Virus record (IMG/VR): IMGVR_UViG_2698536428_000004
Location: 1 to 13,152 of that record
Reading direction: 5' to 3' (one strand)
Length of the DNA stretch: 13,152 nucleotides
From: a virus
Taxonomy: Duplodnaviria > Heunggongvirae > Uroviricota > Caudoviricetes
Part shown: positions 3,634 through 13,120 of the stretch, one piece after another
Position numbering within the stretch: position 1 is the stretch's first letter
Layout: every line of letters begins with the position of its first letter
The notes under the pieces: model-generated
Databases searched by the model: none
Seen by the model: the letters and a program-made list of their open reading frames with translations, nothing else
Told to the model about the DNA's origin: nothing
Program-made: the position numbers and the translations under genes

Positions 3634-3666
3634 ATTTGAGAAATGATTTTGTCGGAGGAAATTTTA

Positions 3667-4380
3667 ATGGAAACCGTTTTTGACGCACTGAAAGCACTGA
3701 AAAGAGCCTCTTCACAGGAGGTGTCGGCCCGCCTTGGAATCAGCCGCGAAGATGCTGTCAACGAGCTGTGGAAGCTGAAACGCCGTGGTGAAGCAGATAA
3801 CAAGGGGTCGATGTGGTGGCTGACGATTGAGGCAACTGAAATGGTCACAAAAACCACTGCGGAGATGCTGATTAACTCAATTGAACAGCATGGTCCTCAG
3901 TCGGCTGACGAACTGGCGTTAATGTTCGGGATTACCTCCCGCCGGGCGAATTCAACGCTGGCAATGGCAATAAGCAAAGGTCGTCTGATTCGAGTAAATC
4001 AGAACGGTAAATTTCGTTACTGCCTGTCGGGCGATAATTTACCAGCAGAGCCGAAAGCTGCATCGGTAACGGAAACTGCTGGTAAAGCCTTTCCTCAGAC
4101 AGCAGGTGTTGCGTTACCAGTCCGGGAAGCGGAAACACAGGAAGAAATTAAAACTGAAAGTGTGGCGGTCACAGTGCAGTCACAGCCGTCGTTCACCAGA
4201 AAGCATCCGGATAGTCTGATTTTACCATCGCTGCATGTGGCTAACCGCGAACTGCGCCGGGCAAAAGGTCAGGTTCAGAAGTGGGAGCGTGTCTGCGCCG
4301 CGCTGCGGGAGCTGAACAAGCACCGGGATATTGTCCGACAGATTGTCGATTCCTCCAGTCGTATTGTGTCGGAAAAGTGA
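3667..4380 (+). CDS. Hypothetical prophage protein with two winged-helix-like modules
   Basis: ATG 3667 with GGAGGA 8 nt upstream; 237 aa; two HTH-like segments ([23 protein letters not shown] and [24 protein letters not shown]) and a charged, coiled-coil-like C-terminus. Confidence 0.55.
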
Positions 4381-7378: not shown

Positions 7379-7435
7379 TGCTGCGGGTGCTTGAGGCTAT
7401 CTGTCTCAGGCATGAATACCAAAAGGCAGATAGAG

Positions 7436-7515
7436 AAAAGCCCCAGTTAACATTGCGCGTCCGGCAAGACGCTTAACATTAATCTGAGGCCATATCTATG
7501 CTCTACACACGTAGG
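7436..7515 (-). ncRNA. sok: Candidate Sok-like antisense RNA (approximate boundaries)
   Basis: By analogy with hok/sok loci the antisense RNA lies opposite the hok leader. The minus strand shows a possible -35/-10 (TTGCCT, 17 nt, TAACCT; plus coordinates about 7551-7523) and a hairpin GCGTC-TTGCCG-GACGC (plus coordinates about 7459-7474). Ends are not defined by sequence alone. Confidence 0.3.
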
Positions 7516-7554
7516 TTAGCCTCTTACGTGCCGAAAGGCAAGGAGAAGCAGGCT

Positions 7555-7710
7555 ATGAAGCAGCAAAAGGCGATGCTAATCGCCCTTATCGTCATCTGTT
7601 TAACCGTCATAGTGACGGCACTGGTAACGAGGAAAGACCTCTGCGAGGTACGAATCCGAACCGGCCAGACGGAGGTCGCTGTCTTCACAGTCTACGAACC
7701 TGAGGAGTAA
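7555..7710 (+). CDS. hok: Hok/Gef-family type I toxin (51 aa membrane peptide)
   Basis: MKQQKAMLIALIVICLTVIVTALVTRKDLCEVRIRTGQTEVAVFTVYEPEE closely parallels recalled Hok ([52 protein letters not shown]); AAGGAGA RBS; the track ORF 7498-7710 is an in-frame 5' extension. Confidence 0.85.
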   Translation: MKQQKAMLIALIVICLTVIVTALVTRKDLCEVRIRTGQTEVAVFTVYEPEE

Positions 7711-7877: not shown

Positions 7878-8156
7878 ATGGCGCACGATACCAAATTATA
7901 CAATTCTGATAATTCAGCCGTCTTTGCCAGCAGGCACGGGCGGCGTTCTCATGCATTCAAATCTGACTGGTTCCAGCACGCCCCATGCACTGAAGAACAG
8001 GCCGAATGGCTGATTCAGAACTACCGCAGACGTGGGTATGAGTTTAGGAAAACCCTCAGCCTCGATTATCGTCACTGGATAATCTCCGTCAGGCTTCCTT
8101 ACTCTGAACGCCCACCGCGTCCGTCCCGCACATTCCAGCAACGCATCTGGAGGTAA
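7878..8156 (+). CDS. Hypothetical protein (92 aa); position corresponds to rem of Qin-type prophages
   Basis: Internal ATG at 7878 chosen because the upstream part of the track ORF (from 7749) overlaps the hok terminator; weak RBS; family not recognised from sequence. Confidence 0.4.
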   Translation: MAHDTKLYNSDNSAVFASRHGRRSHAFKSDWFQHAPCTEEQAEWLIQNYRRRGYEFRKTLSLDYRHWIISVRLPYSERPPRPSRTFQQRIWR

Positions 8157-8157
8157 C

Positions 8158-9207
8158 GTGCGGGTATTACTTCGACCTGTTCTGGTTCCGGAACTCGGGC
8201 TGGTGGTCCTTAAGCCAGGCCGTGAATCCATGCCTATATTCCACAATACCCGGGTACTGGTGGAGCCGGAACCGAAAAGCATGCGTAATCTGCCGTCCGG
8301 GGTCGTTCCTGCCGTTCGCCAGCCGCTGGTGGAAGACAAAACATTGCTGCCGTTTTTCAGTAACGCACGGGTAATTCGTGCTGCTGGTGGTGCTGGTGCA
8401 TTGTCTGACTGGCTGTTGCGCCATATTAAATCCTGCCAGTGGCCACACGGCGATTATCATCACAGCGAAACCGTTATTCACCGTTATGGTACCGGCGCAA
8501 TGGTGTTGTGCTGGCACTGCGACAACCAGCTGCGTGACCAGACATCCGAATCACTCGAGCAACTTGCTCATCAAAACTTGTCAGCATGGATGATTGACGT
8601 CATACGCCATGCAATGAATGGCACGCAGGAGCGGGAATTATCGCTGGCTGAATTATCCTGGTGGGCGGTCTGCAATCAGGTGGCGGACGCGCTACCAGAG
8701 GCAGCATTACGTCGTTCTCTGGGGTTACGTGCGGAAAAAATTCGCTCAGTATACCGCGAGAGCGACATCGTGCCGGGAGAGCAGACCGCCACCAGCATCC
8801 TGAAACAGCGCACAAAAAATCTTGCGCCGCTGCCTCACGCCCACCAGCAACAGAACTCACCACAGGAAAAGACGGTGGTCAGCATTGCCGTTGATCCTGA
8901 GTCTCCGGAATCTTTCATGAAACGACCTAAACGTCGCCGCTGGGTTAACGAGAAATACAAACGCTGGGTGAAGACACAGCCGTGTGCGTGTTGTGGTAAG
9001 CCAGCCGACGATCCCCATCACCTGATTGGTCATGGTCAGGGCGGAATGGGGACAAAATCTCACGATATTTTCACGCTACCGCTGTGTCGGGAGCATCACA
9101 ACGAGCTTCATGCGGATCCGCTGGCGTTCGAAGAAAAGCATGGTTCTCAGGTTGATTTAATTTTTCGTTTTCTTGATCACGCCTTTGCAACTGGCGTGCT
9201 TGGGTAA
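8158..9207 (+). CDS. DUF968-family protein with C-terminal HNH-like Cys/His motif (YdfU/Ref-like)
   Basis: 349 aa from GTG 8158 (GGAGG upstream); C-terminal CACCGKPADDPHHLIGHGQGG...LCREHHNELH is an HNH/zinc-binding signature; length and position (hok, small ORF, this gene, then antiterminator) mirror ydfU of Qin. Confidence 0.65.
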   Translation: MRVLLRPVLVPELGLVVLKPGRESMPIFHNTRVLVEPEPKSMRNLPSGVVPAVRQPLVEDKTLLPFFSNARVIRAAGGAGALSDWLLRHIKSCQWPHGDYHHSETVIHRYGTGAMVLCWHCDNQLRDQTSESLEQLAHQNLSAWMIDVIRHAMNGTQERELSLAELSWWAVCNQVADALPEAALRRSLGLRAEKIRSVYRESDIVPGEQTATSILKQRTKNLAPLPHAHQQQNSPQEKTVVSIAVDPESPESFMKRPKRRRWVNEKYKRWVKTQPCACCGKPADDPHHLIGHGQGGMGTKSHDIFTLPLCREHHNELHADPLAFEEKHGSQVDLIFRFLDHAFATGVLG

Positions 9208-9219
9208 AAGAGGTGACTG

Positions 9220-9579
9220 ATGCTCATAGATTTGGTTTTACCTTACCCGCCGACGGTGAACACTTACTGGCGACGCCGTGGCAGCACATATTTTGTATCA
9301 AAAGCCGGGGAGCGTTATCGCCGGGCAGTGGCGCTTATTGTTCGCCAGCAGCGCTTGAAATTAAGCCTGTCCGGACGGTTGGCAATAAAAATTATTGCAG
9401 AACCACCGGATAAGCGCCGCCGTGACCTGGACAATATTCTGAAAGCACCGCTGGATGCGCTTACGCATGCGGGGTTGTTAATGGACGATGAGCAGTTTGA
9501 TGAAATCAATATTGTACGTGGTCAGCTTGTTCTTGGTGGTCGGCTGGGTGTGAAGATTTACAAAATTGAGAGTGAGTGA
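9220..9579 (+). CDS. rusA: Crossover junction endodeoxyribonuclease RusA (Holliday junction resolvase)
   Basis: 119 aa; AAGAGGTGA RBS; LPYPPTVNTYWRR...PDKRRRDLDNILKAPLDALTHAGLLMDDEQ parallels E. coli RusA (LPWPPSNNRYYRH...[30 protein letters not shown]). Confidence 0.85.
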   Translation: MLIDLVLPYPPTVNTYWRRRGSTYFVSKAGERYRRAVALIVRQQRLKLSLSGRLAIKIIAEPPDKRRRDLDNILKAPLDALTHAGLLMDDEQFDEINIVRGQLVLGGRLGVKIYKIESE

Positions 9580-10148
9580 GCGTAAATATGATATATCCGG
9601 AAATTACAGGCAAAAGCGGCGAACATTTACGCCTGAACACGCTGGAAGCAGTCTGGATCCAGGGGAAATTACGGATGTGGGGGCGGTGGTCGTATATCGG
9701 TGGGGGTAAATCCGGAAATATGTTTAACCGGTTACTGGTTTCGAAAAAGCTGACGAAAACAGCAGTTAATGAGGTTTTACGCAGAATGAAGAAATCCGGG
9801 CTGGAAAAACCGGAACTTGAGGCATTTTTTCGGGATATGACCAGAGGGAAGCAGAAGAGCTGGTTGTCACATTGTACAGACACAGAGGCGTTGATTATTG
9901 ATCGCGTTATCAGTGAGGTGCTTGGGGAATATCCCGGACTAATCAATATTCTCCGGCAAAGGTACGAAGGACGGGGAATGAGCAAACTGAAAATGGCCGA
10001 AAGGTTAAATGCAGATCATCCTGAGTGGACGTTGGTTACGTGCAGACGCCGAATTGATCAGTGGTTGGGGATATCTGAATTTATGTTACATGCCCCCATG
10101 CGTATGGCTTTTGTTACAGAGAAAAAAATGTTGCAAACTGATCAATAA
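9576..10148 (+). CDS. Probable late-gene antiterminator (Q-like), assigned mainly by position
   Basis: 190 aa ORF immediately after rusA (start GTG 9576 or ATG 9588) and immediately before a short region with a strong intrinsic terminator, the position lambdoid phages give to Q; the family was not confirmed by a motif I can name. Confidence 0.4.
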   Translation: MSVNMIYPEITGKSGEHLRLNTLEAVWIQGKLRMWGRWSYIGGGKSGNMFNRLLVSKKLTKTAVNEVLRRMKKSGLEKPELEAFFRDMTRGKQKSWLSHCTDTEALIIDRVISEVLGEYPGLINILRQRYEGRGMSKLKMAERLNADHPEWTLVTCRRRIDQWLGISEFMLHAPMRMAFVTEKKMLQTDQ

Positions 10149-10220
10149 ACTGCTTCAATCCGTATAAGCTTCGCAAGGCTGTATCGCGAGGCGAAATGCA
10201 AGTTTTTTTCGCACAAGGAA

Positions 10221-10243
10221 GCCACCGGAAGGTGGTTTTTTTG
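10221..10243 (+). terminator. Rho-independent terminator (candidate tR-prime-like, Q-antiterminated)
   Basis: GCCACC-GGAA-GGTGG hairpin followed by TTTTTTT, about 75 nt after the Q-like stop; a second T7 run at 10203-10209 lies just upstream. Confidence 0.55.
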
Positions 10244-10365
10244 TGTCCGTAATATACAGCAGCGCAATAAATTCGCTGGTGGTTATTAATACCGTTCTTT
10301 CAGCTTGCTGGCTTTTTCGACAAGAGTTATTGGTGTGTCACGTTAACCGGAAAAGGGAAAAAGAC

Positions 10366-10563
10366 ATGCTGAAACAGCAGGATATGACCGAAACCGCCAG
10401 AGTGGTGTTTAATGAATTAAGCGTCACCGAACCGGCGACAGTCGGGGAGATTGCACAGAATACGTACCTTTCACGCGAACGCTGTCAGTTAATACTGACC
10501 CAGCTTGTTATGGCTGGGCTGGCAGACTATCAGTTCGGTTGTTACAGACGCCTTCAGTCCTGA
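10366..10563 (+). CDS. Small hypothetical protein (65 aa), winged-helix-like
   Basis: ATG 10366 preceded by a purine-rich tract (AAAGGGAAAAAGA); MLKQQDMTETARVVFNELSVTEPATVGEIAQNTYLSRERCQLILTQLVMAGLADY...; a strong terminator overlaps its stop. Confidence 0.4.
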   Translation: MLKQQDMTETARVVFNELSVTEPATVGEIAQNTYLSRERCQLILTQLVMAGLADYQFGCYRRLQS

Positions 10564-10576
10564 AGGCTTTTTTATT
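10550..10576 (+). terminator. Rho-independent terminator
   Basis: GCCTTCAG-TC-CTGAAGGC perfect inverted repeat followed by TTTTTTATTT; the stop codon of the upstream small ORF lies inside the stem. Confidence 0.55.
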
Positions 10577-11131
10577 TGTGGTAAATGGGCGGCTGATGGG
10601 TGTGGTGGTTGTTGCTTTCCCGTTGCTGAAAAAGAAAGCATCAGGCGATTAGCAGGGTATCAGTTACCCGTTGAAATTTTTAAATACCTCACAATTCAGG
10701 CGGTTGACTGTTGTCTGGTTTGCGGGGAGTTTGTTAAAAGAAACTGGCATGGTGAATCCCCCTGTGCGGAGGGGCAATCAGCAACTGGTGTTTTGTCACC
10801 GACCCTTATCCTTTCTGTGCGGGTTCAGGTGCTGATACTGAACTCACCGGGAGGCAACCGGCACCATGCAATGGCACATAGCGCCACTCTCCAGCCCCTC
10901 TCCGGAGGGGCTTTCTTGTGGGCAAAAAAAAGCCTGAGTGGGTTCGGGCAACAGCATGAGATATACATTTTTATAATCGAATGGATTTTAACCAGAATTC
11001 ATAAGGCTGCGCAACTGCGCGGTCTTTTTCGAATTGCGGGCTGTCGTCTCCCTTCTGCCATTGTCCTGTAACTTCCGGACTTCAGCCCGCTCCTTATTTT
11101 ACTCACAATATTATCCCGGCCGGGAGGATTC

Positions 11132-13120
11132 ATGGCATTTAAACACTATGATGTGGTCAGGGCGGCATCGCCGTCAGACCTTGCGGATGCGCTTGCTCAA
11201 AAAATTCGTGAAGGATGGCAACCATACGGCGGGCCGTTTTCTTCGTATACGGATGATGGCGCAGCACTTATTCAGGCGATTGTCGCAGAAGGTGATGTCA
11301 CCACACCTGTGGTGGTGAAGCCGTCGGATGGAGAAGGCACAGTTATCAGCACCACCAGCGAACCGGAGTATTACTTTGTTGTTGTTCTGGCGGGGCAGTC
11401 AAACTCAATGTCTTTTGGTGAAGGGCTGCCGCTGCCGGAGACATATGACCGTCCGGACCCGCGTATTAAACAGCTGGCGCGTCGCAGTACGGTGACGCCG
11501 GGTGGTGCCGCCTGTAAATATAACGACATCATTCCGGCAGACCACTGTCTGCATGATGTGCAGGATATGAGTAACCTGAATCATCCTCATGCAGACCTGA
11601 GTAAGGGACAGTACGGTTGTGTGGGGCATGCTCTGCATGTTGCCAAAAAGCTGCTGCCGTTTATGCCTGCGAATGCGGGTATCCTTCTTGTTCCATGTGG
11701 CCGTGGCGATTCGGGATTTACTGCGGGGGCCGAGGGGGCGTTTAACGAAGCGTCGGGAGCGACCGCAGGCTCGTCCCTGTGGGGGGCGGATAAACCGCTG
11801 TATCATGACCTGGTCAGCAGAACCCGTGCGGCCCTGAAGAAAAATCCGAAGAACGTGCTGTTATCAGTGATCTGGATGCAGGGAGAAAAAGATGTCAGTT
11901 CGGGGAGACATGCAGAACACAATGCGCTTTTCCTTGCCATGGTAAATCAGTTCCGTACGGAACTGGCAGATGTGGCAGAGCAGTGTACTGGCGGGACAAC
12001 GGCCAGCGTCCCGTGGATTTGCGGTGATACCACGTACTACTGGAAGGAAAGGTATGCAGTGCCGTATGAGGCGGTTTACGGTGGGTATAAAGGAAAAGCT
12101 GCGCAGAATATTCACTTTGTGCCGTTGATGACGGATGAGCATGGTGTGAATGTGCCGACAAACGAGCCGTCAGAAGATCCGGACATTATCCCGGCGGGAT
12201 ACTATGGCGCTGCGTCACGCACTGCCAGTAACTGGACGGCAGCCGATCGTAAAACGCACTTCAGTTCATGGGCGCGAAGAGGCCTTGTTTCAGACCGCCT
12301 GGCAGGTGCCATTTTGCAGTACGCCGGGCGGACATTATCGTTCCTTACCGGGCAGAGCGCACCGCAGTCGGGTGGTACAACGCCTGTCAGTCCGGGGACA
12401 CCGGATGTTGAGAAACCGCAGGATGGCGGTGTTGCTGGTACTGGTCATGATGAGGCCGTGAGCAGTACCAGGACGGTGGCTGAATATGATGCGAACAGTG
12501 GAAATGGTGCATTGACAGAGCAGCAGTGGGGCGCTTCCGGCGGCAAAGGCACTGTGACTGATGACGGTGGACGGAAAGCGCTGCGACTGGAAAAACAGCC
12601 CGGTAAACTGACGTCCTGGAAAATGTTCCGTACTATTGCAGTGGAGGAGGCAAAAAATCTTCTCAGCAAGGGGGGGGAAATTGCCGTACGGTTCAAAATT
12701 CCGGATGGAAGCGAGCTGGTGAACGGACAGTTTGTCTTTGGTATCTACTGGCCGGTGTCGCAGTGGGCGTCAGGCGCGACAGCAAACAGTATGCTGGCAT
12801 CATTCTTCCTTCAGACGGATACATCAAATCTTAATCTGATGCACCAGAAGGGCTCCTCGAATGCACAACTGGGTACATTTGGTACGTTTGACCATAACTG
12901 GCATACGGTTGTTTTCCGCTTTGCGGGAAATAACAGCGAAAGAGTTGTTCCGGTGATTGATGGTGCAGAGCAGACGGCATTTGACCTTGTGATGTGGACA
13001 AATGATGGCTTTACAGCAGATACGCTGACGCTGACAGATATCACGGGGGCAAAAGCGACGTATCCGGTACTGCTTGATACGGTCACAGTCAAAGTTAACG
13101 AAAACCGGGAATCAGCATAA
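11132..13120 (+). CDS. nanS: Prophage sialate O-acetylesterase (NanS-p type; DUF1737 N-terminus plus SASA/SGNH esterase domain)
   Basis: 662 aa; GGGAGGA RBS; N-terminus MAFKHYDVVRAASPSDLADAL...; esterase signature VVLAGQSNSM (GQSN catalytic-serine motif); location downstream of the Q/terminator region matches the nanS-p genes of EHEC lambdoid prophages. Confidence 0.75.
   Translation: MAFKHYDVVRAASPSDLADALAQKIREGWQPYGGPFSSYTDDGAALIQAIVAEGDVTTPVVVKPSDGEGTVISTTSEPEYYFVVVLAGQSNSMSFGEGLPLPETYDRPDPRIKQLARRSTVTPGGAACKYNDIIPADHCLHDVQDMSNLNHPHADLSKGQYGCVGHALHVAKKLLPFMPANAGILLVPCGRGDSGFTAGAEGAFNEASGATAGSSLWGADKPLYHDLVSRTRAALKKNPKNVLLSVIWMQGEKDVSSGRHAEHNALFLAMVNQFRTELADVAEQCTGGTTASVPWICGDTTYYWKERYAVPYEAVYGGYKGKAAQNIHFVPLMTDEHGVNVPTNEPSEDPDIIPAGYYGAASRTASNWTAADRKTHFSSWARRGLVSDRLAGAILQYAGRTLSFLTGQSAPQSGGTTPVSPGTPDVEKPQDGGVAGTGHDEAVSSTRTVAEYDANSGNGALTEQQWGASGGKGTVTDDGGRKALRLEKQPGKLTSWKMFRTIAVEEAKNLLSKGGEIAVRFKIPDGSELVNGQFVFGIYWPVSQWASGATANSMLASFFLQTDTSNLNLMHQKGSSNAQLGTFGTFDHNWHTVVFRFAGNNSERVVPVIDGAEQTAFDLVMWTNDGFTADTLTLTDITGAKATYPVLLDTVTVKVNENRESA

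Follow-up and report, generated by a model that had tools for sequence, protein, structure and literature searches.

In EHEC, AsxR and AgvB retune haem and amino-acid uptake. The RNA of the Rfam family STnc100 goes by the names EcOnc27 in Sakai Sp5 and sRNA103 in EDL933, and is related to PasD, which EPEC E2348/69 carries as PasD1 and PasD2. Convergent Hfq-bound sRNAs were described between a moron coding sequence and a conserved ORF in eight Sakai prophages, as exemplified by EcOnc27 and AsxR located 3′ of stx2B in Sp5 (Tree et al. 2014, PMC4104026). The same study detected EcOnc27 by northern blotting and located the start of AsxR in Sakai by 5′ RACE. A 2021 review, which refers to such sRNA pairs as ‘dyads’ and treats EcOnc27 and the EDL933 sRNA103 as one and the same, calls the reason for the arrangement unclear (PMC7873438). 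EDL933 carries 11 STnc100 copies, every one of which is transcribed (PMC5331693), and RIL-seq and CRAC have found Hfq-dependent interactions of the sRNA with other RNAs (PMC8550237).

Here ‘the window’ refers to the whole stretch of 13,152 nucleotides that was analyzed. It belongs to a lambdoid E. coli prophage, of which it makes up the late-regulatory part. Its region 10577–11131 had been read as a possible small RNA gene, a degenerate remnant of moron cargo, or a carrier of the nanS-p promoter. The sRNA reading is borne out, the cargo remnant is confined to 10598–10652, and the promoter reading finds no support. Known biology accounts for the region, which holds a known sRNA pair, the remains of a cargo gene, one more terminator, and the leader of nanS-p. 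It is very probably a moron-type cassette of convergent sRNA genes that would be expressed from the prophage in the lysogen.

Location and boundaries of the region

Upstream in the window lie a hok/sok toxin–antitoxin locus (7385–7710; Rfam sok at 7385–7560 with 116.4 bits and a Hok/Gef ORF at 7498–7710), a DUF968 gene (8158–9207), RusA (9220–9579), and a Q-like antiterminator gene (9576–10148; DUF1133 and Phage_antitermQ, phrog_753). A strong terminator hairpin stands past the Q-like gene (10222–10241; −15.1 kcal/mol, z −4.6). A candidate late promoter pR′ (10132–10160; −35 TTGCAA at 10132–10137, −10 TTCAAT at 10155–10160) overlaps the end of the Q-like gene, and part of it is also conserved in L066, a further Q locus of the DUF1133 type. 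Together with the hairpin at 10222–10241, it would yield a terminated leader of ~75 nt that resembles StxS.

Farther downstream, a 65-aa ORF (10366–10563, plus strand; phrog_331, a homologue of SfV orf47) has terminators on both sides, and many Stx2 phages carry it as a mosaic module of its own. Its intrinsic terminator (10550–10573, plus strand; stem at 10550–10567 and a T-run; −10.5 kcal/mol, z −3.1) makes the left boundary of the 555-bp region. The right boundary is nanS-p (11132–13120; DUF1737, SASA, and DUF6645 domains). Both flanks are thus as originally predicted. The region is 99.8% identical to a region of E. coli LZSFT34 and has matches in 2708 of 5426 complete E. coli genomes, at up to 12 places per genome.

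The earlier view that no credible protein gene lies here stands, as none of five ORFs has a Pfam or PHROG match. They include the long ORF noticed before (10505–11071, plus strand, 188 aa, TTG start) and four shorter ones, and a protein-coding reading was rejected. PGAP calls no intact gene in the region in the 99.8%-identical genome. In LZSFT34 (L003), a minus-strand ‘hypothetical protein’ pseudogene of PGAP/RefSeq lies at 2661–2801 (window 10737–10877) over the STnc100 core described below, and is probably a spurious homology-based call. A tRNA gene or tRNA remnant was also rejected, since both ARAGORN and the Rfam tRNA model were negative in the region, in agreement with the lack of tRNA patterns reported before.

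The locus is indeed one where phages carry cargo, because stx2B in Sakai Sp5, or tRNAs, TerB, and DUF3927 in ABU 83972, precede the same module. The left end of the region is a dead cargo fragment, since 10598–10652 (plus strand) retains just the 3′ end of a DUF3927 moron gene, made up of its final 17 codons (...GVVVVAFPLLKKKASGD) and its stop codon and lacking a start codon. Window 10598–10700 is 100% identical to ABU 83972, where the DUF3927 gene comes after three tRNAs and TerB, and phage BLAST results display the same mosaic joint at the DUF3927 fragment. Judging from these alignments, a mosaic junction cuts off the DUF3927 gene. Together with a terminator tail, this fragment makes up the first ~75 nt of the region.

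The remainder is neither cargo debris nor the suspected stx/tRNA scar, as alignment with Stx phages shows a conserved module downstream of the cargo. The order in Sakai Sp5 is stx2B, STnc100 (207.7 bits), AsxR (88.1 bits), and the esterase ORF. The window aligns with Sp5 from ~45 nt past the stx2B stop, via STnc100, AsxR, and the third terminator, to the esterase start codon.

Two convergent sRNA genes and the nanS-p leader

The suggestion of a small RNA proved right, in that the module holds two convergent sRNA genes of families known to Rfam. A covariance-model scan with Rfam, which had been proposed as a check, found STnc100 (RF02076) at 10718–10923 on the plus strand with 140.6 bits (E = 1e-31). 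This score is three times the family gathering cut-off (47 bits), and the match is full-length, covering model positions 1–206 of 206. By sequence, 10718–10923 is an sRNA gene homologous to EcOnc27/sRNA103. The GC-rich hairpin GCCCCTC-TCCG-GAGGGGC, flagged by the original prediction, is real (10893–10912, followed by TTCTT). It makes the intrinsic terminator of the STnc100-type RNA (10893–10917, plus strand; −17.3 kcal/mol) and coincides with the 3′ end of the Rfam model. As judged from homologues, the STnc100 of the window would be an expressed, Hfq-associated sRNA (PMC4104026, PMC5331693).

Because a consensus scan of 9500–11600 gave no plus-strand site, the STnc100 promoter was placed by comparison among lineages. 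The putative promoter has a −35 TTGTCT (10711–10716) and an extended −10 TGtTAAAAG (10732–10740), and the alignments show a conserved upstream region in the E. coli lineage (10690–10746, plus strand; CACAATTCAG...GGTTGACTGTTGTCTGG...TGTTAAAAG). The predicted start is at ~10746–10748. In 43 of 75 non-redundant upstream regions, the −10 hexamer of the best σ70 match ends 4–7 nt before helix P1 of the core, so the core probably begins at +1. The promoter sequences themselves vary between lineages.

A start near 10747 implies an RNA of about 171–174 nt. The candidate 5′ ends conflict with one another, being ~10747 from promoter placement, 10718 from the Rfam model, and ~10690 if the northern bands of EcOnc27 apply, as an RNA of that size (~235/247 nt; PMC4104026) would have to begin close to the conserved CACAATTCAG at 10690. 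In the Sp5 promoter region, HUS-risk variants have been reported at +90 and +103 after stx2B (2025 study, PMC12711010). By count, they hit the extended −10 region and the spacer that leads up to the predicted start, which would fit a promoter at the predicted place.

On the minus strand, a permissive Rfam scan revealed an AsxR/AgvB-family anti-sRNA at 10979–10927, followed by a U-tract (to 10924). Its sequence is 5′ CGAUUAUAAAAAUGUAUAUCUCAUGCUGUUGCCCGAACCCACUCAGGCU8. The match to the AsxR model is full-length with 56.5 bits (E about 1e-8), and that to the AgvB model has 37 bits, both below the respective Rfam gathering cut-offs of 63 and 56 bits. In ABU 83972, where this allele comes with an intact terminator, the copy scores exactly 63.0 bits with the AsxR model.

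Members of this family were taken to have a conserved 3′ part of ~42 nt, a variable 5′ part of 14–18 nt, and a total length of 51–60 nt. The AsxR model and the Sakai alignment, in which 46 of 53 positions are identical to Sakai AsxR, reveal the same layout in the window, with a conserved 3′ part and a variable 5′ part. With its 5′ region CGAUUAUAAAAAUGUAU, the anti-sRNA represents a fourth allele in addition to AgvB, AsxR, and EcOnc03, and the four alleles have one 3′ part in common. This allele is fairly common among the fetched loci (8 of 20 copies).

The putative anti-sRNA promoter consists of a −10 TAAAAT (10990–10985) and a −35 TTGCGC (11014–11009) with an 18-nt spacer on the minus strand, both hexamers being identical in Sakai. 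It overlaps a third intrinsic terminator of the plus strand (11005–11029; GGCTGCGC-AACT-GCGCGGTC-TTTTT; −15.7 kcal/mol, z −4.4), which is invariant in four aligned loci. A similar GC-rich terminator is found directly after the STnc100 core in other lineages. Weak Rfam matches at 10925–11031 (plus strand) to istR, the Leu leader, and OmrA-B were rejected as chance hits on this terminator hairpin.

The STnc100 and anti-sRNA genes converge with their 3′ ends just a few bases apart. In PhiR5_1 (L001, ~3650–3780), the partner of STnc100 is another minus-strand element, which has a terminator GCCCGCGUCUCCCAGCGCGGGC-U7 and does not belong to the AsxR family. Thus, the convergent partner gene appears exchangeable.

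The rest of the region is the 5′ leader of nanS-p (11030–11131, plus strand), with a ribosome-binding site GGGAGGA at 11122–11128. The leader is near-invariant among the window, Sakai Sp5, ABU 83972, and PhiR5_1, while the sequence upstream of it varies. No significant fold was found in 11030–11131 (z −0.8). The nanS-p promoter that the region had been suggested to carry was not found in the above-mentioned plus-strand scan of 9500–11600. The plus strand gave no σ70-like site in that scan, and the conserved terminator at 11005–11029 stands just upstream of nanS-p.

A pseudoknotted core of STnc100-type RNAs

The conserved structured core of the STnc100-type RNA (10747–10869, plus strand) comprises five helices. 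They are P1 (10747–10754 with 10862–10869), P2 (10759–10762 with 10771–10774), pseudoknot a/a′ (10777–10783 with 10830–10836), hairpin b/b′ (10821–10828 with 10838–10845), and P5 (10847–10851 with 10857–10861). The loop of b/b′ pairs with the stretch just past P2, making an H-type pseudoknot; the structure line of the Rfam STnc100 match shows no pseudoknot. The window can form P1, P2, b/b′, and P5, apart from one P5 pair that A10857 breaks.

With a 26-nt core motif (10750–10775), at least 120 contigs were retrieved from IMG/VR, along with 32 species-representative contigs. The motif matches come from Escherichia, Citrobacter, Enterobacter, Klebsiella, Leclercia, Lelliottia, Atlantibacter, Trabulsiella, Superficieibacter, Phytobacter, Franconibacter, Erwinia, and Rosenbergiella. 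In the core sequences, conserved 5′ and 3′ parts flank a variable insert. Two alignments were made, one with MAFFT for 41 representatives and the other guided by a model for 107 distinct sequences.

P1, P2, b/b′, and P5 are supported in both alignments. In the 107-sequence set, 93.5% of the cells are paired, and double changes are found in 21 of 25 pairs. The observed pairing was reached in 0 of 500 shuffles, and the pairing is only 41–49% when the partner is slid by 1–3 columns.

The pseudoknot is only 47% paired when scored column by column on the MAFFT alignment, because the register of the helix shifts between lineages. Therefore, cognate and non-cognate strands were compared in a register-free test. 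The longest complementary run of the pseudoknot strands is 6.4 bp on average for cognate strands versus 4.7 bp for non-cognate strands. In 5000 permutations the cognate average was never attained, whether all 104 sequences or 63 representatives of <80% identity were used. The pseudoknot helix is diverse, with 38 distinct helix pairs among the 41 representatives.

P2 appeared invariant in the first set because the loci had been fetched by the exact 26-nt pattern, and compensatory changes of P2 are present in additional copies obtained via model R1. The invariance of P5 is no artefact of such fetching. A diverged cassette (L122:2938–3042; 32.6 bits with model R1) keeps the five helices, with GCCUG/CAGGC as P2 and GAAA as the P5 loop. 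The same sequence makes a diverged third cassette in ABU 83972 (L004), between STnc100 matches at 2121–2326 and 2604–2813, where its helices are kept by compensatory changes. As a guess, diverged copies such as this middle cassette may correspond to PasD.

The pseudoknotted fold, which covariation supports across many enterobacterial genera, may be new. It is possible, though we hold this only tentatively, that the STnc100/PasD core is a fold-dependent RNA domain beyond an Hfq seed-pairing sRNA, with a possible role in binding of RNA polymerase or of a conserved protein from host or phage, or as an insulator. If the insulator role is true, the core, the convergent partner, and the stacked terminators would hold lysis genes silent in lysogens.

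The copy in the window carries a rare substitution in each sRNA gene. A10857 breaks the innermost pair of P5, which is open in just 4 of 107 sequences, and C occupies this position in the LZSFT34 copy (99.8% identity). In the anti-sRNA terminator, the U8 tract is present, but T10935 (plus strand) makes a C–A mismatch in the stem, because of which no hairpin appears in the minimum-energy fold. The mismatch is seen in 3 of 20 copies. As both substitutions hit paired positions, both genes may be decaying in the window.

Cassette placement, rival explanations and known systems

Arrays of 3–5 cassettes were found in L009, L040, L127, L129, L136, L139, L151, and L152. The STnc100-like cassettes in arrays are spaced by roughly 200–700 nt upstream of lysis genes (L009:2326–3350; L040:4380–5459 and 8380–8515; L127:6385–7916; L152:4417–5948), and L040 has one further copy downstream of its array. 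Across genera, the element follows Q genes (PF03589, PF06530/DUF1133) and precedes either nanS-p or genes for holin, lysozyme, and Rz. In L081 (7958–8219), a tRNA gene (8146–8219) starts right after the STnc100 match, just upstream of the holin gene.

We conceive that on the plus strand, a σ70 promoter would start an STnc100/EcOnc27-type RNA of about 170–205 nt, whose first 123 nt would form the pseudoknotted core, followed by a single-stranded tail and an end at the terminator 10893–10917. On the minus strand, a second promoter would start the ~53-nt anti-sRNA, the variable 5′ end of which would pair with and neutralize a core-genome sRNA, as in characterized relatives. Both kinds of RNA would bind Hfq, going by the literature on relatives. 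The plus-strand terminators (at 10550, 10893, and 11005) may shield nanS-p and the lysis genes from transcription, and RNAP that has been modified by Q and arrives from the late promoter beside the Q gene would pass through all three.

The element could instead be a Q-dependent late promoter with a terminated leader, a counterpart of lambda pR′/6S RNA or StxS, so that the sRNA would be a by-product of late-operon control. Its position between the Q-like gene and lysis or nanS-p genes in many genera fits this, as does its make-up of a promoter and then a terminator. However, Q in L143 is immediately followed by a separate lambda-like pR′ (TAAATT...AACGATGGG) and the terminator that belongs to it, and two distinct promoter–core–terminator cassettes stand between that pR′ and the holin gene. 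In Sakai Sp5, moreover, the element lies downstream of tRNAs and stx2AB. These two observations led us to reject the late-promoter leader, which we regard as very improbable. In the window, ~570 nt and two terminators separate the element from Q, with mosaic joints between it and the Q module, and the same core is found behind Q proteins of three different families. Even less probable is that the region is non-functional recombination debris in a decaying prophage. The DUF3927 fragment and the rare substitution at a paired position in each sRNA gene would be expected then, but functional homologues are nearly identical in sequence to both promoters, the core, and two of the terminators, and the STnc100 match far exceeds the family cut-off as described above.

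An unlikely alternative, with more in its favor than these two, is that the pseudoknotted core acts mainly via its fold, in cis or by protein binding, and that Hfq-dependent pairing is secondary. It could, for example, modify RNAP, sense a ligand, or process or stabilize late transcripts of nanS-p and lysis genes. Compensatory changes keep the five helices including the pseudoknot even in diverged copies, the core starts at the predicted +1 and always faces lysis or late genes, the terminators after it differ between lineages, and copies are found in tandem arrays of 3–5. On the other hand, discrete terminated RNAs accumulate in uninduced lysogens (PMC4104026, PMC5331693), so the core does not antiterminate alone, and Hfq-dependent interactions with other RNAs have been seen by RIL-seq/CRAC (PMC8550237). 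STnc100 is the only Rfam match reaching its gathering cut-off in the region, and thus no ribozyme or riboswitch family was found there. Nor do the copies have an expression platform in common after the core. The pair of convergent sRNA genes remains our preferred explanation.

The gap between the terminator and nanS-p is thus a known sRNA pair of Stx-type prophages, which annotation pipelines could label. The defined fold of the core offers a concrete mutation target for the questions of the dyad arrangement and the HUS variants. The core is found widely among enterobacterial prophages, at times in arrays, and it and these tandem arrays are the sole parts that might repay further work.

Compared with known systems, the plus-strand gene resembles EcOnc27/sRNA103 in its full-length model match, its position between cargo and esterase, its convergent partner, and its promoter-region motifs. 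It differs from the Sp5 copy of EcOnc27 in the variable insert and the 3′ tail, and A10857 is unusual in P5. The minus-strand gene is like AsxR, AgvB, and EcOnc03 (RF02703, RF02702) in its length of ~53 nt, its 3′ part AUCUCAUGC..UUGCCCGAACCCACUC.GGC-Un, and its convergence with an STnc100-type gene. Also as with AsxR, it is located between moron cargo and a conserved phage ORF downstream of pR′. Unlike AsxR, it differs in the variable 5′ region at 4 of 16 positions, scores below the cut-offs, and has a mismatch in the terminator stem.

Lambda 6S RNA and StxS provide a further comparison, as they too are short terminated RNAs made from a constitutive promoter, with read-through towards lysis genes that depends on Q, and StxS additionally acts in trans through Hfq. 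Unlike these RNAs, the cassette here is separate from pR′, is found behind several Q families, and occurs in tandem arrays. The put RNA of HK022 is likewise a structured RNA starting near a promoter in a lambdoid phage. In contrast to put, which is ~70 nt long with two stem-loops and suppresses termination itself (PMC9378689), the core has five helices with a pseudoknot, and its transcripts terminate. A put-like self-antiterminator was rejected on this architecture and on the accumulation of terminated RNAs by homologues.
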